Below, in pieces: positions 10,565 to 43,173 of a stretch of 45,940 nucleotides of DNA; positions within the stretch are counted from its first letter, which is position 1, and each line of letters begins with the position of its first letter. The DNA is taken from sequence record DRR723986_8621; one strand, 5' to 3'. Position numbers and translations under genes: made by a program. The notes beneath the pieces were generated by a model. It saw only the letters and a list, made by a program, of their open reading frames with translations. It was not told the origin of the DNA and searched no databases.

Positions 10565-10715
10565 TCGCTGGGCAGGCAGCTGGATCCGTCGTGGTCGCTT
10601 GTGCTGTCGGGCTGTCAGGGTTACGGTTACCCAGCCGTAAGCAACTATAACGATAAACAACTTATATACCGTGGCGGCGCGAGACCTGCTGCCGTCTACG
10701 AGTGGAGGAAGACGC

Positions 10716-13700
10716 ATGTCCTTTGCTTCTCCTGTGGCGATACGCCGCATCTGCGTGGCCCTGTTACTGGTCGCCGTTACGTACAGCTGCGGCGATGGCA
10801 GCAATCATCGCACCGTTAAGCCGGACCCTGAGCTGCCGATCCTGCCGCCGGCGCCGCTGCTTTCCGCTCGGGAGGCGATCGGCGATAGCGACTTGTTGGC
10901 GGGTCCACTCGCCCGGGGCCGGATCGGCGATTACGTGCTGGAGAACGAACTGCTGCGCGTGATCATCCAGCGCCCGGGTCGCCAATGGCTTGGGGTGGGC
11001 ACTTACGGCGGCAATATTATCGATGCCGGTGCAGTGACCGAGGATGGCGACTTCCTGCCCGACCACCTCGAGGAATTTGTGGTGGGCATTAATGTCGAGA
11101 ACACCCCGAATTACACCGAGGTCAGGGTAGAGAGTGATGGCAGTGATGGGGAGGCGGCTATTATCTGTGCCGCCGGTCCGGATGATCTGCTCGAATACGC
11201 CAACGCGAGTTCGGCAATCCGTGGGCTGGGTTTCCAGTTCCCTGACTCTGCCGATGACCGGGACCTCCCCCTCGAAATAGAGACCTGTTACACCCTGCGC
11301 GCAGATCAGGCCTATATCACCATGGATACGGTGCTGCGCAATACCAGTAGCGAAGAACTCGCCCTGTACCACGTGGAATACCTCAGTGGCTCCGGGCAGG
11401 TAGAGGCATTCCAGCCGCGCGCGGGATTTGGAGAACCCCAGATTACGCCGTCCTGTCCCGAGGAGAGCCGGGTGGCCTGTTCCTCGGCGGATGACGGCCT
11501 CTGCGACCAGTGTAATTTTCTCGCTTACGCGGGGATAGATGGGGCTGCCGGAGTGAGCTACGGCCTGATCCATGAGACGCCCGGTACCAGCAGTTTCGCT
11601 ACCTCAGGGATATCCGTGCTGGTGTTGGGCCAGAACCTGTTTGATTTGCTGCTGGGTTTATCAGATGCCAATTTTATTGTGCCTGCTGAGGGTGAGCTTA
11701 CCTTGCGCAGATACTTTGCCGTCGGTGATGGCACGGTCGCGAGTATTGCAGATATCCGCGATGAGTTATTCGGAATAGAGACCGGGGAGCTCGCGGGCCA
11801 GGTAAGCAGTGGCGGAGAAGCGATCGCCGGTGCACAGGTGGCCGTCTATCGCGAACTCGACGGGCGTACCGAGCCACCGAGCCTGTTCATGGCCGGGCAT
11901 ACGCGCAGCGACGAGGAGGGTAACTACAGCCTGCGGGTGCCGCCGGGCGAGTACCTCGTGCGAGCGAACAAGGATGGCTTCCCGTTTCCTGAGGACGACC
12001 CGTTTGCAGTCGCGATCGAAAGTGGCGTCCGGGTAGAGCGGGCTATTGAATTACCATCCCCGGGATTTCTGGAGGTCACTGTCCTGGATGACCTGGGGCC
12101 CGGTCCGGCCAAGCTGCAACTGGTGGGTTTCGACCCAAGCCCGCCGCTGGAGAACCGGGTGCAATTCTTCGATGCCGGCGTCTTTGGCGACGTCAATGCA
12201 GATGGGCTGCCGTTCGGCATCGCCTTCGTGTCGTTTATCGACCGCACGGGTGACAGTGGGAGGCTGGTGGTGGAACCCGGCGACTATGAATTGGTGCTGT
12301 CCCGTGGTCCTCGCTACTCGGCGTATCGCCAGCGCATCACGATTACACCGGGGCAGGTCACGGTCGTGCAGGGTGAGTTGGTCAAACTGGTCGATACCCC
12401 CGGATTTGTGCACGGTGATTTCCATGTCCATGGCATCGACAGCCCGGATTCGGAGGTGACGCGCGAAGAGCGGGTGGCAAGCTACCTGGCTGAGGGCATG
12501 GATTTCTTTACCCCTTCTGAACACGGCAGTCGGGTCGACTTTACCCCGACCCTGGAAGCCATGGGTGTCACTGACCTGTTGGCGACGGCCACCAACAGCG
12601 AGAGCACAACCTTTGACTACGGGCATTTCAACAGCTGGCCGCTCACTATCGACCCTGATTCACTCAGCGGTGGAACGGTGGACTGGGGCCGTGAGGCGCC
12701 GCCGGGAATGGATTTCCCCGAGTACGGCAGCTACAACCTGTCGCCGGCTGAAATTATCGAAGGACTGGCAGCCGACCCGAAGGGCAACGTGGTCCAGATC
12801 AACCATACGGCCTCCTTCTTTAGCGCGGAGGGACTGGGTATCGATACCGGACTCACGCCGCCGCAGTCGACGGTTGATGTCGTGACCCGGCGACTTGATC
12901 CAGCCCTGGCTAACGGCTTCGACGACGGCTTCGATACGCTGGAGGTCTGGATAGGTACCAATGGTCGCGGCGGCATTTTCGGGCAGTTTCTCGGCCAGAA
13001 CGCCGGTGACTGGTTCAACCTGCTCAATCAGGGGATTGTGCGTTTTGGTACCGCCAACTCGGACTCCCACAATCGCCGCTTCACCGGGCTGTCGGCGCGC
13101 AACCTGATCGCGAGCGAGATTTCCGCGCCGGGAGAGTTGGCCACTGAGGCAGAACGGCTGGCCGCGTCGGTTCGTGCGGGGCGCAGCATTGGCAGCAACG
13201 CCCCTTTCCTGCTGCTTACCGCCGAGGGTCGTTTCGCTGGACAGCCCCAGGTGGCGGGCCTCGCAACAGGACAGGATACGACCATCCCGCTGGACCCCAA
13301 TACACCGCTAGCCGTCTCGGTTCGTGTACAAACCCCGGGCTGGGCCCGAGTCGATCGGCTCGAGTTCTATATCAACTCGCGCACCGTGCCGAGGGAGGAG
13401 GGGGGCAGCCGCCGTTACGGCATTTGCGCCGACCTGGTTGTTGCGGCGGGCTCGCCGGACTGGACTGAGAAAGATGTTGTGGTCAATGAGCGGGTTGCCG
13501 GGGCAATCCGGCAGGAAGTGGAGGTTACGGTCAGTCTGCCGTCGCTTCCGGCGGATAGCTGGATCGTGGCCATCGCGCGCGGCAGCGACGGTGTGAGTTC
13601 GCCCCTGTTCCCGGTGCTTCCTGCGAGTCTTGATCAGCAGGGTAACGAGACCCTCGAGGATCTTGTCGACGGTAACGTAGGCCAGGGCGGCGTGCCGGCC

Positions 13701-13790
13701 TTTGCGTTCAGTAATCCCTTGTTTATTGATCTTGGCGGTGACGGCTGGCAGGCACCCGGGGTCAGTACGGGCAGCTGCGAGGACGGCTGA
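10716..13790 (+). CDS. Large lipoprotein with a carboxypeptidase-regulatory-like beta domain and PHP-type (CehA/McbA-like) metallohydrolase domain
   Basis: ATG 10716 follows a GGAGG SD. Signal peptide ends VTYS-C. GQV..G.AIAGAQV...SDEEGNY...PPGEY is a beta-sandwich pattern. Metal ligands GDFHVH, SEH, QINH and NSDSH. Confidence 0.75.
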   Translation: MSFASPVAIRRICVALLLVAVTYSCGDGSNHRTVKPDPELPILPPAPLLSAREAIGDSDLLAGPLARGRIGDYVLENELLRVIIQRPGRQWLGVGTYGGNIIDAGAVTEDGDFLPDHLEEFVVGINVENTPNYTEVRVESDGSDGEAAIICAAGPDDLLEYANASSAIRGLGFQFPDSADDRDLPLEIETCYTLRADQAYITMDTVLRNTSSEELALYHVEYLSGSGQVEAFQPRAGFGEPQITPSCPEESRVACSSADDGLCDQCNFLAYAGIDGAAGVSYGLIHETPGTSSFATSGISVLVLGQNLFDLLLGLSDANFIVPAEGELTLRRYFAVGDGTVASIADIRDELFGIETGELAGQVSSGGEAIAGAQVAVYRELDGRTEPPSLFMAGHTRSDEEGNYSLRVPPGEYLVRANKDGFPFPEDDPFAVAIESGVRVERAIELPSPGFLEVTVLDDLGPGPAKLQLVGFDPSPPLENRVQFFDAGVFGDVNADGLPFGIAFVSFIDRTGDSGRLVVEPGDYELVLSRGPRYSAYRQRITITPGQVTVVQGELVKLVDTPGFVHGDFHVHGIDSPDSEVTREERVASYLAEGMDFFTPSEHGSRVDFTPTLEAMGVTDLLATATNSESTTFDYGHFNSWPLTIDPDSLSGGTVDWGREAPPGMDFPEYGSYNLSPAEIIEGLAADPKGNVVQINHTASFFSAEGLGIDTGLTPPQSTVDVVTRRLDPALANGFDDGFDTLEVWIGTNGRGGIFGQFLGQNAGDWFNLLNQGIVRFGTANSDSHNRRFTGLSARNLIASEISAPGELATEAERLAASVRAGRSIGSNAPFLLLTAEGRFAGQPQVAGLATGQDTTIPLDPNTPLAVSVRVQTPGWARVDRLEFYINSRTVPREEGGSRRYGICADLVVAAGSPDWTEKDVVVNERVAGAIRQEVEVTVSLPSLPADSWIVAIARGSDGVSSPLFPVLPASLDQQGNETLEDLVDGNVGQGGVPAFAFSNPLFIDLGGDGWQAPGVSTGSCEDG

Positions 13791-24272: not shown

Positions 24273-24289
24273 GCACAACTGTCTTAGCG

Positions 24290-24316
24290 AGGCGGCCTGT
24301 TGGCCGCCTTTTTTTT
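24290..24316 (+). terminator. Rho-independent terminator after secF
   Basis: AGGCGGCC-tgtt-GGCCGCCT followed by a T-run. Confidence 0.9.
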
Positions 24317-24377
24317 GCGCCGGTTTTTGCCAGTTCTGCTCGCAGTCCCAGCGACCGTACACAGCCGCTTAACCAAT

Positions 24378-24433
24378 CTGTCATTAAATTGCCATCCGCA
24401 CGTCAAGAAAGCGTCATGCTTGATTGCTAGCGT
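24378..24433 (+). promoter_or_regulatory. Putative tandem Pho boxes (four 11-bp-period repeats) plus a -10 element
   Basis: CTGTCAT-taaa-TTGCCAT-ccgc-ACGTCAA-gaaa-GCGTCAT (24378-24417), then 10 bp, then TAGCGT (24428-24433). Confidence 0.7.
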
Positions 24434-24472
24434 GTCGGCTTCTTTAAACCTCTCACGGAGAAGCGTAACGCT

Positions 24473-25876
24473 ATGAAGAGCCCCCTCGGTTTTAAACAGT
24501 CCAGACTCAGTGCCGCAATCGGCTTCGCGGCGATCATGCTCGGCAGCGGTACCGCGCTGGCGCAGCCTGCAGTGGTAACGGAGGCGACAGAGGAAGCCTT
24601 CCAGGCGGCCCTGAGTTCGGGAGCCCGGGAGATTGTTATCGCCACCGAAGGCCCTATCGTGATCGACGACACCCTGACCTACGATGGTGATGATTCCCTG
24701 TCCATTTATGGTGCAGGTCAGACCATTGAGGCTGTGGCCGATGTCACCCTGTTGGAAGTCAGCAACGGCGCCAACCTCACGGTAGTTGGTCTCAACTTCC
24801 AGGGCCTGGGTGGCTTCGATATCGACAACCAGGGTAATGGCAAGGGTATCTTTGTCGACGTGCGTGACAACCAGAATGGGCTGGTCAAGCTCGTTCTAAA
24901 GGATGTTGCCGTGCGCGATGTGGCCAACCACGGGATACATGTGTCCGATTGTGACCTCGCCGATGATTGTGGTGGCGGCAGTGGCGGCTCAGGTGGCGGT
25001 TCATCCGCGTCGATTGTGGTCGAACTGACTAATGTCACCGTCGAAAACGCGGGTACCGGCAGGTTTGATGCCGACGGTGTGCGCGTGGATGAACGGGCCA
25101 ACGGGAATATCCTGTTTCGGGCCGACGGCTCTGTGTTTACTGGCGTTGGTGCCGACGGGGTAGAACTTGACGAAGGCCAGAACGGTATCGTCGAGGCGAT
25201 CGTCAGCAATAGCAAATTCAACAATAACGGCAGCTACTGCGCGCCGGTGGCGGAGTTTGCCGGGGAGCGTAAGGACATTCCCGCAGGTGAGCTCACGGTC
25301 GCGGAGTTCGAGGACACGATTGTCCCCTCCGGCACGGCAGATGATCGCTGCTTCGAAGTTGAATTCGACACCCATGAAGACGGCACGATCAGCGACTATG
25401 AGGTCGCGCTGGACCTGGACGACGGCTTCGATATCGATGAGGCCGGCAACGGCGGCCTGAGGGCGCGGGTGTTTAACTCCGAGGTGCTCGACAATGATGA
25501 TGAGGGCCTGGATTTTGACGAGGAAGACAACGGTCCGATCGATCTGGTGGTGGTGAATACCAATGCCTCCATGAACACGGATGACGGCATCAAGCTGTCC
25601 GAGGAGGATAGCGGGTATGTGCAGGTCCTGTTGCTCTCGGTACAGGCCATGGATAACGGCGGCAAGGGGTTTGTCTTCGAGGAAGCCGATGCGGGTGATC
25701 TGGACGCCACTGTTGAGGGTAGTGCAACCGCCGGCAATGATGGTGGTGATGTGGGTGTCGAGGCGGTGCAGGAAGACCAGGGTGTCGGCCTGCTGACTCT
25801 GCGCAACACAACGGTCGAAGAAACCGACAAGCAGGACGGCGTTGACGTCGACGGTGTTGAGCTGGTTGTTGACTAA
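24473..25876 (+). CDS. Secreted, highly acidic hypothetical protein; probable right-handed parallel beta-helix
   Basis: Sec signal peptide ending ALA-Q; GGAG SD. Repeated DG(V/F/L/I)x(V/L/I/F)(D/S)E motifs with N/G/V beta-helix-like periodicity. Confidence 0.75.
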   Translation: MKSPLGFKQSRLSAAIGFAAIMLGSGTALAQPAVVTEATEEAFQAALSSGAREIVIATEGPIVIDDTLTYDGDDSLSIYGAGQTIEAVADVTLLEVSNGANLTVVGLNFQGLGGFDIDNQGNGKGIFVDVRDNQNGLVKLVLKDVAVRDVANHGIHVSDCDLADDCGGGSGGSGGGSSASIVVELTNVTVENAGTGRFDADGVRVDERANGNILFRADGSVFTGVGADGVELDEGQNGIVEAIVSNSKFNNNGSYCAPVAEFAGERKDIPAGELTVAEFEDTIVPSGTADDRCFEVEFDTHEDGTISDYEVALDLDDGFDIDEAGNGGLRARVFNSEVLDNDDEGLDFDEEDNGPIDLVVVNTNASMNTDDGIKLSEEDSGYVQVLLLSVQAMDNGGKGFVFEEADAGDLDATVEGSATAGNDGGDVGVEAVQEDQGVGLLTLRNTTVEETDKQDGVDVDGVELVVD

Positions 25877-25921
25877 GACCTGCTAAGCAGCGGCTGCCCC
25901 GGCGCTTGCTGCCAATACGCG

Positions 25922-25945
25922 AAAGGCCCCAATGGGGCCTTTTTT
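25922..25945. terminator. Bidirectional intrinsic terminator between the acidic-protein gene and suhB
   Basis: AAAGGCCCC-aat-GGGGCCTTT followed by further Ts; lies between convergent genes. Confidence 0.85.
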
Positions 25946-26005
25946 CCTGGCGGCTTGCAGTCCTTTTGCGCCGCGGATGTCCTCGGGCTGAGCCCGGGTC
26001 GCTGC

Positions 26006-39842: not shown

Positions 39843-40049
39843 ATGCGTTTCACAATGAACAAAAACCTGTTCTCGGGCGGTGATAACCAGGTGCTGTTGT
39901 ACGCCACCTTGTTTCTGCTGGCGGCACTGGCCAGTGCCCTCGGTGGCGGAGCCCTGGGCCTGCTTAGCTTCCTGCCCGCGGTAGCGCTGGCCGAAGGAGC
40001 TTCCCGTTGGGCGAGCGATGCGCAGGCCAGCACTGTGCAGGAGGATTGA
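39843..40049 (+). CDS. Small hydrophobic (membrane) protein, first gene of the GntR/ABC operon
   Basis: SD GAGGTG at 39831-39836 before ATG 39843. The 68-aa product has a long hydrophobic core and ends 4 nt before the next start. Confidence 0.6.
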   Translation: MRFTMNKNLFSGGDNQVLLYATLFLLAALASALGGGALGLLSFLPAVALAEGASRWASDAQASTVQED

Positions 40050-40053
40050 AGCC

Positions 40054-40881
40054 ATGATTATCCGACAGGCATTGTTTGGCGGTATTGCCGTGCTCATGTT
40101 GGGCTCAGCCATGCTGGCGTCGGCCGATACCCGCCGGGTCGAAGGGCTGTCCTTCGAGCGGGTGGTGGTGATGGGTCCGGTGGAGGTTGAGATCTCGCAG
40201 GGTGAGGACATCCTGCTGCAGATCAAGGGTTCCGAGGATTCGCTGGAGAAACAACCCTTCTATGTCGACGATGACACCCTGGTGCTAGGTGAAAGCCGGA
40301 AGGACCGGAAGGCCGACTTCGACGACGTTAAATTCAAGCTGACGGTAACCGAACTGGAGCACCTCAAACTCAAGGGCTCCGGCGAAGTCTTTGTCCGGCC
40401 GCTGGAGACTGGTGAACTGTACGTTGCCGTGGAAGGTTCAGGCGATATCAAGCTGTTCAAGGTGACCGCGGATGAGGCCGTGCTGCAGGTCAGCGGATCA
40501 GGGGACATCCAGGTTGTTGAACTCCAGGCACCGGAGTTACAGCTGGTGCTCTCAGGTTCGGGCGATATTCATCTCGGCGAGCTGACGGCCGAGGAGACGG
40601 ACGCTTCGGTGAATGGTTCCGGTGACATGAGCCTGGAGGGCGATGGCGCCAGCCATAGCGTAGACCTGAATATCGTCGGTTCGGGCGACATCGATTTCCG
40701 TCATCTCAATGCGCATAGTATCTCGGTCAACATCGTTGGCTCGGGAAGCGCGCGGGTCGGTGCCTCGGAAGAACTCGATGTCACCATCATGGGTAGCGGT
40801 GATGTCATTTACGCCGGCCGTCCGGAAATTGACCAGTCGATTATGGGCTCCGGCTCAGTCGCCTCCGGAGACCGGGACTGA
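40054..40881 (+). CDS. Exported DUF2807 / GIN-domain (beta-solenoid, adhesin-head-like) protein
   Basis: Signal peptide; about ten GSG(D/E/S)(I/V/A/M) repeats at roughly 19-21 aa spacing; GSGDVIYAGRP. Confidence 0.82.
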   Translation: MIIRQALFGGIAVLMLGSAMLASADTRRVEGLSFERVVVMGPVEVEISQGEDILLQIKGSEDSLEKQPFYVDDDTLVLGESRKDRKADFDDVKFKLTVTELEHLKLKGSGEVFVRPLETGELYVAVEGSGDIKLFKVTADEAVLQVSGSGDIQVVELQAPELQLVLSGSGDIHLGELTAEETDASVNGSGDMSLEGDGASHSVDLNIVGSGDIDFRHLNAHSISVNIVGSGSARVGASEELDVTIMGSGDVIYAGRPEIDQSIMGSGSVASGDRD

Positions 40882-40902
40882 ATCGTCCCACGGGAGCCGC
40901 CC

Positions 40903-41274
40903 ATGGCTATGGAATGGAATGAAAACCAGCCGATCTACAAGCAACTGCGGGATCTTGTTGTAGAGCGGATTATGGACGGTAGCTTCGCCGAGGGCGCAGC
41001 GGTTCCGTCGGTACGCCAGGTCGCCGCAGACTACCAGATCAACCACCTGACGGTGGGTAAGGCCTACCAGGAACTGGTGGATGTTGGCCTGTTGGAAAAG
41101 CGCCGTGGCCTCGGCATGTTCGTCACTGAGGGTGCGCGCGGCGCGCTCACTACTGACGAACAACAACGCTTCCTCGAGGAGGAATTGCCGGCCTTTGCCG
41201 ATCGGGTCGATGTTCTCGGCCTGGCGATGGACGACGTGGTGAAATTATTACTCGAAACCAGGGGTGAGGAGTAA
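40903..41274 (+). CDS. GntR-family regulator, YtrA subfamily
   Basis: PIYKQL, PSVRQVA, INHLTVGKAYQEL, RRGLGMFV; short C-terminal domain; directly precedes an ABC ATPase. Confidence 0.93.
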   Translation: MAMEWNENQPIYKQLRDLVVERIMDGSFAEGAAVPSVRQVAADYQINHLTVGKAYQELVDVGLLEKRRGLGMFVTEGARGALTTDEQQRFLEEELPAFADRVDVLGLAMDDVVKLLLETRGEE

Positions 41275-42137
41275 TGGAACAGATAATCGGGGCCACTGGC
41301 CTCAGGCGCAGTTTTGGTGATCTTCACGCGGTAGACGGGGTCGACCTGTCAGTAACTGCGGGGAGCGTAATTGGACTGATCGGACCTAACGGCGCAGGCA
41401 AGACGACCTTGCTACGGGCGCTGCTGGGGCTTACCCATTTTGACGGCGATGTCTCCGTGCTGGGGCGCGATCCACGGACCGAGCGTGCGCGGTTGATGGA
41501 AGAAGTGTGCTTCATAGCCGATACCGCGGTGCTGCCGCGCTGGATGCGGGTCGACCAGCTGCTGGACTATGTCACCGGCATCCACCCGCGCTTCGACCGC
41601 AGGCAGGCGGAGGAATTTCTGGCCACAACGGAAGTTACCCCGCGCCGCAGGGTGCGTGACCTGTCCAAGGGGATGACGGTGCAGCTGCATCTCGCTCTGG
41701 TTATGGCGATCGATGCGCGCCTGCTGATCCTCGATGAGCCCACCCTGGGCCTGGATATCCTGTTTCGCAAGCGCTTCTTCGAGCAGTTGCTCAACGATTA
41801 CTTCGATGACGAACGGACCATCATTATCTCCACTCACCAGGTGGAGGAGGTCCAGAATATTCTCACCGAGGTCATGTTCATGGACCGGGGCAAGCTGGTA
41901 TTGCAGCAGCCTATGGCCAACCTGGAAGAGGATTTCATCGAACTGCACGTGGTTGGCGACAAGGTTGCACAGGCGGAGTCCATCCCGCATGTCGGGGTCC
42001 GTAGCATCCTCGGTGGCAAGGCGATCATTTACGAGGGAGTGCCGCGCGACATGCTGGCCCAGCTCGGTGAGCTGCGCACGCCGTCCGTGTCCGACCTGTT
42101 CGTGGCCAAGGTAGGGGGGGAACATAACCATGGCTGA
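41274..42137 (+). CDS. ABC-2-type exporter ATP-binding protein
   Basis: Walker A GPNGAGKT, signature LSKGM, Walker B LILDEP, STH. Confidence 0.95.
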   Translation: MEQIIGATGLRRSFGDLHAVDGVDLSVTAGSVIGLIGPNGAGKTTLLRALLGLTHFDGDVSVLGRDPRTERARLMEEVCFIADTAVLPRWMRVDQLLDYVTGIHPRFDRRQAEEFLATTEVTPRRRVRDLSKGMTVQLHLALVMAIDARLLILDEPTLGLDILFRKRFFEQLLNDYFDDERTIIISTHQVEEVQNILTEVMFMDRGKLVLQQPMANLEEDFIELHVVGDKVAQAESIPHVGVRSILGGKAIIYEGVPRDMLAQLGELRTPSVSDLFVAKVGGEHNHG

Positions 42138-43173
42138 TAAATCACCGTCCCGCTATTTTTCGCTGGTGCAGCGGGAACTGCAGGAATACAAGAACTCCCT
42201 GTTCTGGACGCCGGTGGCGATTGCCATAGCGCTTACCGCTGTGATGCTGGTCAGCGTTGTGCTCGCCGGTCGGATCAGTGTCATGGGAGATGCGATCCTG
42301 CAGGTCCTGCTGTTAGAGGACACCGCCGGGGGTATGAATATTTCCATCCAGATCGATGAGGATGACCCCAGTGGTAACACCTACAGCTACACAATCGAGA
42401 CCGAGGAGTCCCTGGATGAAGAAGACTGGAACTTCTCCAGGGAGTGGAACTTCAACCCCACGACGAAGCCCAAGCTGGAGCAGGAGCTCGATGACCGGGT
42501 CGATACCCTCAACCCGATGCTGAACGTTCTGCACAGTATTCTCGTGTTGGTGTTGCTGTTCGTCACCGTCAACTACCTGCTGGGTACGCTTTACGATGAC
42601 CGCAAGGACCGCAGTTTCCTGTTCTGGCGCTCGCTGCCGGTGTCAGAGTGGGAGGAAGTTCTTTCCAAGCTGTCTGTCGCGCTGATTGTTGCGCCCACCG
42701 TGTTTATCGCCCTGAGTCTGCTGATGCAGCTGGCCTACATACTGCTGGCCATGCTGCTGGTGTGGCGCATGGACATGAACCCGCTGCAACTGGTGCTCGG
42801 CAACATCGAGTTCGGCAGGCTGCTGTTTGACCAGATATCCGGCTGGGTGCTGACAGCCCTGTGGGTCGCTCCGCTGTACGCCTGGCTGCTGCTGGCGTCC
42901 GCAGCAGCGCGTCGCTCACCTTTCATGTTCTCGGTAGCGCCGGTGATCGGTGTGATCCTGCTGGAGGAGTTCTTCCTGGGAACAGCCGTAGTGCGCACTG
43001 CCATCGCCAATCACATGCCGCACTACACGGACGGCGGAAGTTCGGTGGGTTTTTACTTTACCGGTGTCGACTGGGGCTCGGTCAACTATCTCAGGATCCT
43101 CTCCGGCCTGGTGTTCACCGCTCTGGCACTGTGGTGCACAGTGTTGCTGCGGCGCTATCGCTGGGAGATCTGA
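42130..43173 (+). CDS. ABC-2-type exporter permease
   Basis: About six TM segments; YDDRKDRSFLFWRSLPVS..E.VLSK motif; overlaps the ATPase gene. Confidence 0.85.
   Translation: MADKSPSRYFSLVQRELQEYKNSLFWTPVAIAIALTAVMLVSVVLAGRISVMGDAILQVLLLEDTAGGMNISIQIDEDDPSGNTYSYTIETEESLDEEDWNFSREWNFNPTTKPKLEQELDDRVDTLNPMLNVLHSILVLVLLFVTVNYLLGTLYDDRKDRSFLFWRSLPVSEWEEVLSKLSVALIVAPTVFIALSLLMQLAYILLAMLLVWRMDMNPLQLVLGNIEFGRLLFDQISGWVLTALWVAPLYAWLLLASAAARRSPFMFSVAPVIGVILLEEFFLGTAVVRTAIANHMPHYTDGGSSVGFYFTGVDWGSVNYLRILSGLVFTALALWCTVLLRRYRWEI

Follow-up and report, generated by a model that had tools for sequence, protein, structure and literature searches.

Introduction

What is an exported and extremely acidic protein doing among the housekeeping genes of a marine gammaproteobacterium? 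The question is raised by a DNA stretch of 45,940 nucleotides from sequence record DRR723986_8621 (hereafter the window), where an open reading frame on the + strand, at 24473..25876 with its stop codon at 25874-25876, translates into a protein of 467 residues. A preliminary description, made from the letters of the sequence, had seen in this product a candidate new phosphorus-scavenging enzyme or binding protein, built as a parallel beta-helix. We propose that the protein probably helps the cells to scavenge phosphorus, because its gene carries what reads as a phosphate-starvation promoter and because its relatives are, in other species, fused to nucleotide-degrading enzymes. In the form that we favour, and to which we give a probability of about 0.5, it would be exported, under PhoB control, and would bind phosphate-bearing polyanions, perhaps also cleaving them, by means of Ca2+ bridges.

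We found no curated family, solved structure or paper covering this protein. At the level of titles and abstract openings, the literature yielded no description of the family or of a Pho-regulated beta-helix protein, and work on the 'atypical alkaline phosphatase' gave no usable link to the family. The fold and the regulon are already known; what appears to be new is their combination, a predicted AlgE-like helix with a carboxylate-ladder cleft, a conserved putative PhoB control, and use as a module of secreted nucleotidases.

A probable phosphate-starvation promoter

Two tandem Pho boxes lie upstream of the gene at 24378..24417 (+ strand), in the form of four half-sites of seven nucleotides in 11-nucleotide phase (CTGTCAT, TTGCCAT, ACGTCAA and GCGTCAT, scoring 7, 5, 4 and 5 out of 7). 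The first pair, 24378-24395, matches CTGTCAT-N4-YTGYCAY exactly, and it is the sole intergenic one among the four sites of the window that score at least 11 of 14. A candidate -10 hexamer, TAGCGT, can be picked out by eye at 24428..24433 (+ strand), 10 nucleotides after the last half-site, without a -35 element. We recognize here the layout of the PhoB regulon, where direct repeats in 11-nucleotide phase take the place of the -35 element and the -10 element follows about 10 nucleotides downstream. A consensus scan for sigma-70 promoters returned none near the gene, as is to be expected of an activator-dependent promoter that is devoid of a -35 element.

The arrangement recurs upstream of the orthologues. 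With a fixed consensus, read on the sense strand between -130 and -40, a score of at least 11 of 14 was reached at 16 of 47 non-redundant orthologue loci, against a single one of 434 upstream regions of control open reading frames (Fisher p 8e-17); with at least 10, the figures become 27 of 47 and 14 of 434. Allowing A or C at position 5 of the half-site, a variant that was picked after inspection of SAR11 pstS upstream regions, retrieves 17 of the 40 high-GC loci (controls: 2 of 365) and 6 of the 7 low-GC ones, a small set (controls: 3 of 69), that is 23/47 in total as compared to 5/434. Run without any prior, a Gibbs sampler arrived, in the three best of its runs, at CTGTCAC-cAAA-ctGTCAC, located between -57 and -105 in 35 of the 40 high-GC loci; as far as sequence can tell, this motif is the classical PhoB site at its classical position.

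SAR11 copies of the gene are preceded by repeats similar to those of SAR11 pstS genes. At three pstS-like promoters of this group (loci L081, L082 and L083) we observed CTGTAAT-N4-CTGTAAT or CTGTAAT-N4-CCTTAAT, a variant of the Pho box with A for C. Upstream of one SAR11 copy of the beta-helix gene (L069:1842-2041), a stretch of about 40 nucleotides is duplicated, the copies carrying TTGTAAC-N4-TCGTAAT or TTGTAAC-N4-TTGTAAT; closer to the start, this region has a third phased triplet.

Fusions to phosphoesterases

A second line of evidence comes from domain-carrying proteins of more than 800 residues, among which fusions were sought. Seven of them (P0122, P0123, P0181, P0195, P0210, P0274 and P0275) begin with a part resembling 5'-nucleotidases and 2',3'-cyclic-nucleotide phosphodiesterases, and continue with the beta-helix domain. 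NCBIfam models of multifunctional 2',3'-cyclic-nucleotide phosphodiesterase / 3'- / 5'-nucleotidases are matched by these fusions with E values of 1e-25 to 1e-42, all below the cut-off, and one fusion, from Halochromatium glycolicum, is named a bifunctional metallophosphatase/5'-nucleotidase at NCBI. P0123 is 39% identical to the window's protein over residues 28-448 (E 6e-68). Another protein, P0152, joins a Metallophos (calcineurin-like) domain and three Calx-beta domains to two copies of the beta-helix domain. The cleft residues described in the next section are kept in all eight phosphoesterase fusions, except that E350 is a threonine in two of them.

P0152 is one of several relatives in which the domain is present in two or more tandem copies. 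Two others, P0124 and P0165, are tandem beta-helices devoid of a phosphoesterase part; several cleft residues (D233, D314, D322, K374) are replaced in them.

The known systems that come closest in this respect are the secreted nucleotidases and phosphodiesterases of the YfkN, UshA and CpdB types. Such enzymes can bear a relative of the window's protein as their C-terminal module, and extracellular phosphorus scavenging is the common theme, whereas the window's protein is equal to the extra module only: Pfam found Metallophos and 5_nucleotid_C domains in fused relatives and not in it. In Gram-positive relatives, to judge from the names of NCBIfam models, a cell-wall anchor would stand in place of the beta-helix module.

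The genes that surround the relatives supply a third line, at one locus in particular. In a low-GC alphaproteobacterial single-cell genome (L043:2558-10605), the beta-helix gene follows ugpA-like, ugpB-like and OlsF-like genes and precedes those for a PlcP-like metallophosphoesterase, an Agt-like glycosyltransferase and ppk1, in what appears, from its gene content, to be a compact phosphate-starvation island. The plcP-agt pair is presented, in part of a previous report, as a Pho-box-controlled lipid-remodelling operon (PMC4796936). In a Halioglobus (L003:7473-9125), a second Pho-box-like site, scoring 12 of 14, stands directly 5' of genes for a PAP2 phosphatase and a glycosyltransferase of the MJ1255/VC2487 family that adjoin the beta-helix gene, and these two may be another lipid-remodelling pair of phosphorus starvation. 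A PPK2 gene adjoins the beta-helix gene at L008, a gene for a PstS-family lipoprotein at L039. The phosphorus link drawn in the preliminary description is therefore sustained by the Pho boxes of the orthologues, by the phosphoesterase fusions and by one phosphate-starvation island; the survey of homologues that it had recommended found the boxes conserved, and the neighbourhood itself not conserved.

Two observations may be added on these loci. At L043, TTTTAAC / CTTTAAC repeats in 11-nucleotide phase lie 5' of the OlsF-like gene and again 5' of the beta-helix gene. On the 3' side of the copy of Roseivivax lentus (L012:7651-10753) we find an arsenate-detoxification set, made of an ArsR-ArsC fusion, GAPDH and ArsJ; arsenate enters cells via phosphate transporters, and this set may be a loose association with phosphorus stress.

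A predicted acidic cleft on a beta-helix scaffold

What kind of surface is brought by this module? AlphaFold2, given an alignment of 125 sequences, models the protein as a right-handed beta-helix with about ten coils, each made of three strands (predicted local distance difference test, pLDDT, 93.6; predicted template modelling score, pTM, 0.90). A ladder of similar motifs runs through the sequence, at residues 152, 200, 227, 316, 343, 370, 397 and 426, spaced by 27-29 residues except from 152 to 200, across a glycine-rich loop, and from 227 to 316, across an insert of 63 residues. The repeat is more than the product of chance, as it is kept column by column in the 125 relatives, down to about 30% identity. 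In the model, the motif G-hydrophobic-x-hydrophobic-D/E makes the first strand of each coil (203-207, 230-234, 319-323, 346-350, 373-377 and further), to be followed by a five-residue turn, the second strand, a two-residue turn and the third strand; this order, taken from the DSSP string, leads us to assign the ladder strands to sheet PB1, which floors the substrate cleft in beta-helix enzymes.

The conserved acidic cleft thus predicted spans residues 199-377 (25067..25603, + strand), on the PB1 strands of coils 3-7, and comprises D199, D201, R204, D206, D228, E231, D233, E234, D314, D317, D320, D322, E323, D347, E350, K374 and E377, as read from the alignment of the 125 relatives and the model. 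Conservation in at least 116 of the 125 extends to D159, D199, D201, G202, R204 (123 relatives), D228, G229, E231, D233, E234, N252, G253, D314, D317, D320, D322, E323, N341, G345, D347, E350 and E377; D206 is kept in 101 and K374 in 100. The outward-facing columns of PB1 would be H156-R204-E231-D320-D347-K374 and S158-D206-D233-D322-D349-S376, flanked in the turns by the columns D201-D228-D317-E344-D371 and D159-E207-E234-E323-E350-E377. In terms of the canonical substrate cleft, formed by PB1 and turns T3 and T1 of coils 2-7, the model suggests a lining of about 17 near-invariant Asp/Glu, in other words a sheet of some 17 carboxylates over five coils, bounded by the near-invariant Arg204 and the mostly conserved Lys374. 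The preliminary description had postulated a parallel beta-helix with carboxylates stacked on one face, and the model, which superposes on AlgE4/AlgE6 A-modules with a Z score of 33.9, agrees with both proposals, the face being the first strand of each coil (PB1) with its flanking turns.

The mature form of 437 residues has an isoelectric point of 4.05, 93 Asp and Glu (21.3%) for 20 Lys and Arg (4.6%), and a net charge of -73. Export would be ensured by a Sec-type signal peptide, residues 1-30 (24473..24562, + strand), recognized by eye as a basic and then a hydrophobic stretch, with a predicted cleavage after ALA (ALA|Q); relatives have similar N-termini, and this segment has a pLDDT below 60 in the model. 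No lipobox cysteine and no twin-arginine motif could be seen by eye at the N-terminus. There are four cysteines (160, 166, 256 and 293), exactly four being also the number in 115 of 121 relatives, although each of them is kept in 66-78 members of the 125-sequence alignment. The first two make up, with the GGGSGGSGGGS loop (residues 167-177), a segment at residues 160-179 (24950..25009, + strand) which is an insert in turn T1 of coil 2 (pLDDT 85-91; Cys160 in 70 and Cys166 in 66 of the 125). The other two bracket a subfamily-specific insert, residues 251-313 (25223..25411, + strand), which contains extra strands as well as a helix at 276-282. Depending on the column, about 45-77 of the 125 relatives show a gap in this insert, and the Halochromatium fusion lacks it. 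The glycine loop and this insert are found in about 55-60% of the 125 relatives; together with His153/His156 and the four cysteines they would be subfamily decorations and not part of the core. The two histidines were considered as catalytic residues and rejected, being replaced by Phe/Tyr and Leu/Tyr/Trp in 23 and 31 of the 125 relatives respectively. Within the insert, FDTHEDGTISDYE (25361-25399, residues 297-309) aligns weakly with the EF-hand loop of a hippocalcin-like protein, in a match that covers residues 262-312 of the window's protein (E 0.61, non-significant).

Neither Pfam nor NCBIfam gave any family at E<=10 for the 467-residue protein, hence no PhoA, PhoD, PhoX or PstS, and no such chain appeared in the searches of Protein Data Bank (PDB) sequences. 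In this, as in the signal peptide, the extreme Asp/Glu content, the motif ladder, the two cysteine pairs and the glycine-rich loop, the preliminary description had read the sequence correctly.

How the protein might work

We may now assemble these elements into a mechanism. The gene would belong to the PhoB (Pho) regulon as a stand-alone member, switched on when phosphate is scarce, and its product would be exported by the Sec machinery to the periplasm, possibly further. Seawater contains about 10 mM Ca2+ and 50 mM Mg2+, and these ions would load the carboxylate ladder, forming a row of metal ions. A beta-helix rises by 4.8 Å per coil, so that a cleft of five to six coils is calculated to be about 25-29 Å long; over this length the metal row, together with Arg204 and Lys374, would offer a surface to phosphate-bearing polyanions, the candidates being nucleic acid, polyphosphate, phosphorylated or phosphonylated polymers and possibly Ca-phosphate. 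Phosphorus scavenging would be served by two forms, the free protein and, in other lineages, a module at the C-terminus of secreted nucleotidases or of metallophosphoesterases. The module might capture and present a polymeric substrate, or cut it, leaving the monomers to be dephosphorylated by partner enzymes, a cooperation suggested by the fusions to nucleotidases.

Does the cleft catalyse anything? Within the reading just given we would hold this at about even odds, by analogy, since Ca-carboxylate sites with Arg or Lys cleave P-O bonds in other folds and since nearly all the close structural neighbours of the model are cleft enzymes acting on polymers. In beta-propeller phytase, several Ca2+ ions held on Asp/Glu bind phosphate groups together with Lys/Arg. 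This enzyme, PhoX and Psip1 are analogous in the way they work only: exported and Pho-regulated, with Ca2+ held by Asp/Glu that binds phosphate with the help of Lys/Arg, they are beta-propellers and not beta-helices, and they have no sequence relationship to the present family. Psip1 was also considered and set aside, being PhoX-like and unrelated; its active site has been compared with that of PhoX (PMC11098088).

A more ambitious version, which we entertain tentatively and would not back against an even bet, is that of a new class of phosphorus-scavenging enzymes. Its members would use an AlgE-like beta-helix, with a cleft switched from cationic to a carboxylate-Ca2+ ladder, as a Ca2+-dependent depolymerase or phosphodiesterase, and would cut extracellular nucleic acid or polyphosphate into units for nucleotidases and phosphatases. 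Such a class would explain the nucleotidase fusions and also the retention of the gene in streamlined oligotrophs.

Points of resistance

Several observations weigh against a role in phosphorus scavenging, or limit how far it can be specified. The geometry of the carboxylates is deduced solely from sequence periodicity and the DSSP string, and a cleft as strongly anionic as the one modelled could equally bind cationic ligands, or metals only. The solved folds nearest to the model have uronate polysaccharides, and not phosphate esters, as their substrates. In the fusions, the C-terminal position and the tandem copies would suit a module for binding or anchoring just as well as one for catalysis. 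Only weak Pho-box matches were obtained at about half of the orthologue loci. The neighbourhood is not conserved: among 180 flanking open reading frames at 49 loci, phosphorus-metabolism genes are neighbours at four loci and arsenate genes at one. Low prevalence in SAR11 and in the Halieaceae argues against a universal role for the family. Of 401 sampled Pelagibacteraceae genomes, 11 carry the family and 17 carry PhnJ (C-P lyase), with an overlap of 0; the overlap expected being about 0.5, this co-occurrence is uninformative and gives no support. Finally, no RNA run stands among the matches listed when sequencing runs are queried with the words of the gene.

Structural neighbours and the rival explanations

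The best solved matches of the model are the A-modules of the mannuronan C-5 epimerases AlgE4 and AlgE6 (PDB 2PYG, 2PYH and 5LW3), ranked first by Foldseek (E 2e-7) as well as by an independent aligner. They superpose with Z scores of 33.7-33.9 and a root-mean-square deviation of 3.2-3.3 Å over 325-326 aligned residues at 17-20% identity, model residues 31-467 corresponding to chain residues 1-374. Some 2.4 Z units below come the next entries, the RbmB lyase of Vibrio (31.1-31.5), and then AlgG (30.4-30.7); phage tailspikes, polygalacturonases and the adhesin PfbA have lower scores than AlgG. The fold alone gives no function, because all 50 beta-helix proteins listed by the Foldseek-independent search, adhesins included, have a Z of at least 22 (22-34).

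Sequence comparison leads to other proteins. A profile of the family, run against PDB sequences, reaches VexL (PDB 6FI2) with E 2e-7, residues 28-119 of the query aligning with 59-141 of the chain, and RbmB with E 0.003, both matches being confined to the N-terminal cap and the first rungs. VexL is the only solved protein reached in this way at clear significance, and a phmmer search with residues 120-387 against the same sequences gave a best E of 0.27. At family level, therefore, no characterised polysaccharide lyase or adhesin is matched, a match that the preliminary description had named as a reason to give up its proposal; the nearest folds are polyuronate epimerases and lyases at 11-20% identity.

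A polysaccharide-active enzyme remains a live rival, precisely because the nearest solved folds are of this kind and because the profile match to VexL covers the N-terminal cap only. The protein would then be a Ca2+-dependent lyase, epimerase or hydrolase acting on an acidic polysaccharide, the carboxylates of the cleft holding Ca2+ that neutralises those of the substrate, and Arg204 or Lys374 serving as the base, as in pectate lyases and alginate epimerases. Its connection to phosphorus would be indirect, via the release of phosphonate- or phosphate-decorated sugars from dissolved polysaccharide, or via the remodelling of exopolysaccharide made under phosphorus limitation. We consider this unlikely.

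Like AlgE4 and AlgE6, the window's protein would be a secreted right-handed beta-helix that works through the cleft of PB1, and the Z scores of these two epimerases (up to 33.9) exceed those of RbmB (31.5) and AlgG (30.7). AlgE enzymes need Ca2+, with Ca-binding modules following the A-module, and the catalytic set of AlgE4 is Tyr/Asp/His/Asp. The differences are that the window's protein shows no sequence-profile match to them, and that phosphate regulation and nucleotidase fusion are features of its family, not of AlgE. As for the lyases of type PL1 (VexL, PelC), an acidic cluster with an invariant Arg and a Lys in PB1 is the layout of the Ca2+-dependent pectate lyases, and R204 and K374 are conserved in PB1 of the present family, while the profile match to VexL ends at residue 119. 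VexL itself, a periplasmic Vi-antigen lyase, shares with our protein a signal peptide, disulfides and the beta-helix, but it differs in being metal-independent, in the opposite charge of its groove and in having no Pho link; part of the report that describes it, which also summarises PL1 chemistry, gives a catalytic Arg232 and an electropositive groove, as is said there of polyuronate-binding clefts, whereas the cleft of the window's protein is predicted to be a carboxylate ladder (PMC6003464).

Other facts speak against a polysaccharide substrate. Pfam returns no lyase, epimerase or glycosidase, and the profile matches to VexL and RbmB end before the catalytic rungs. Not one gene for polysaccharide utilisation or exopolysaccharide was met among the 180 flanking open reading frames, and copies are present in the streamlined SAR11 genomes. 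Conserved Pho boxes and nucleotidase fusions would be left without a direct explanation, some 17 conserved carboxylates over five coils far exceed what one catalytic Ca site needs, and the resemblance of fold, extending to all 50 proteins with a Z of 22-34, leaves function unfixed.

Less probable still, in our view, is a protein that has no organic substrate at all and acts as a high-capacity buffer of cations or phosphate in the envelope. It might sequester periplasmic Ca2+ and Mg2+ so that a large phosphate pool stays dissolved, store Ca-phosphate clusters, or replace the phosphate-containing anionic parts of the envelope that are lost in phosphorus-sparing lipid remodelling; a bold formulation would make it the protein matrix of a periplasmic Ca/phosphate buffer. 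The net charge of -73 and the regular carboxylate array would suit this role, as would Sec export with no further sorting signal, Pho control and the adjoining lipid-remodelling genes of L043 and L003. Background for it is found in part of one account, where periplasmic phosphate is put at about 0.3 M and the cell 'somehow averts precipitation', which would need low divalent cations (PMC7250820), and in part of another, on a large extracellular phosphate buffer in SAR11 and Prochlorococcus (PMC4525184). What the former proposes, in that part, is ion pairing and not a protein. Furthermore, as only 11 of 401 Pelagibacteraceae and 19 of 201 Halieaceae genomes carry the gene, it is not the general basis of a population-wide phosphate buffer; Prochlorococcus is not among the family matches listed; and a pure cation buffer needs neither a ladder arginine kept in 123 of 125 sequences nor a tether to nucleotidases.

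As for an adhesin-like structural beta-helix of the surface or the medium, unrelated to phosphorus and with upstream repeats bound by another OmpR-family regulator, we hold it very improbable: PfbA, Vag8, pertactin and UpaB do figure among the structural matches (Z 23-30), but no domain for a beta-barrel, an anchor or a secretion signal is recognized by Pfam or NCBIfam, the cleft residues are near-invariant across 125 sequences, unlike adhesin surfaces, the motif found de novo upstream is the PhoB consensus, and there are the phosphoesterase fusions.

Family and distribution

A PhoB-controlled protein for phosphate-bearing polyanions, as we favour, should be looked at in the context of the lineages that carry it. 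Of 8000 sequences scored in a word-indexed search, 796 are homologous at E<=1e-3. For the most part, the best 120 relatives listed have 415-560 residues and share 46-72% identity with the query; their source-given names are 'hypothetical' or a generic 'right-handed beta helix', and among the named sources are Halieaceae, genera of the Roseobacter group and Pelagibacteraceae. When 1.84 billion cluster representatives (50% identity) were scanned exhaustively with a profile, 1203 of them scored at E<=1e-3, of which 492 reached <=1e-10 and 241 reached <=1e-30. Out of 600 pattern matches in species-representative genomes, 205 correspond to a gene for a relative, the best 80 of the 205 belonging to Halieaceae, Rhodobacterales, Pelagibacterales, Hyphomicrobiales, Neptuniibacter and Marinomonas. 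Pfam Beta_helix (PF13229) is matched by 12 of 30 aligned relatives (best E 5.3e-7), as compared to no family at E<=10 for the window's protein, and the homologue P0079 matched Beta_helix/NosD-like clusters only in a protein-cluster search.

The gene is accessory, single-copy and patchy. It is present in the 19 Halieaceae genomes just mentioned (13 of them with a full-length match) and in 11 of the sampled Pelagibacteraceae (at least 80% complete), and it occurs once in each of five named carriers. A maximum-likelihood tree of 48 non-redundant sequences places the window's protein in a Halieaceae clade (support 100/99); in it the Oceanospirillaceae are nested among the alphaproteobacterial sequences, and no bootstrap tree has the classes as single groups; this topology is compatible with transfer between classes, without proving it. 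The words of the gene are shared by 12 DNA sequencing runs from six marine metagenome studies, one of which has half or more of them.

The gene and its surroundings

The window is ordered as lysS, two-component genes, xseA, guaB, guaA, purL, secD, secF, the gene at 24473-25876, suhB-like, trmJ-like, iscS, rlmN, pilW, ispG, hisS, bamB and der. On the upstream side, the operon of secD and secF (assigned by Pfam) is ended by an intrinsic terminator at 24289..24318 (+ strand), a hairpin at 24289-24310 of nine pairs, seven of them G-C, followed by a T-run (folding free energy -19.1 kcal/mol, z -3.0). On the downstream side, a second terminator at 25921..25946 (+ strand; hairpin 25921-25943 and T-run; -16.7 kcal/mol, z -2.9) separates the gene from the convergent suhB-like gene; it was missed by the consensus terminator scan and was found from the sequence and its folding. 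With these two hairpins, a monocistronic gene flanked by terminators, as originally described, is what we see. A Shine-Dalgarno-like GGAG, found by eye at 24457..24460 (+ strand), would precede the ATG by 12 nucleotides, a rather long spacing.

In this context the gene has the appearance of having been inserted into a conserved block of housekeeping genes. Its GC content at third codon positions is 0.69, for 0.73-0.78 in the neighbouring secD, secF and suhB-like genes, and the local GC content drops between 24001 and 26000 to 0.57-0.60, against about 0.62 around; this composition hints that the gene was acquired by transfer. Among the loci compared, the placement between secF and suhB is common only to Parahalioglobus pacificus (L002).

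Two further regions of the window caught our attention. An open reading frame of 1039 residues (10671-13790, + strand) has a CarboxypepD_reg domain at residues 375-438 and, below the cut-off, a CehA/McbA-family metallohydrolase at 578-1019, with no match for its first 370 residues. At 40018-43173 (+ strand), a 287-residue DUF2807 protein comes first, then a GntR-type regulator, an ABC ATPase and an open reading frame of 347 residues without family; DUF2807 is a putative adhesin head domain, itself a beta-helix-like family.

Concluding remarks

Phosphate limits growth across large parts of the surface ocean, and the set of bacterial enzymes known to act on dissolved organic phosphorus is incomplete. 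The family described here has no curated model and no characterised member. It is found in ecologically dominant marine groups (OM60/Halieaceae, Rhodobacterales, SAR11 and Oceanospirillaceae), and its phosphate-starvation control appears to be conserved across classes. Because three independent lines, promoter, domain fusions and one phosphate-starvation island, tie it to phosphorus, it is a well-defined target for assays. Should the cleft be catalytic, we would have a new enzyme class in marine phosphorus cycling, together with a new marker gene of phosphorus stress. Should it be a Ca-dependent capture module, it would show how secreted nucleotidases find their polymeric substrate. Either way, an acidic cleft on an AlgE-like scaffold would illustrate how the cleft of a beta-helix can be adapted to a different kind of ligand, and the family has real potential for a new enzyme or binding class in the cycling of marine phosphorus.

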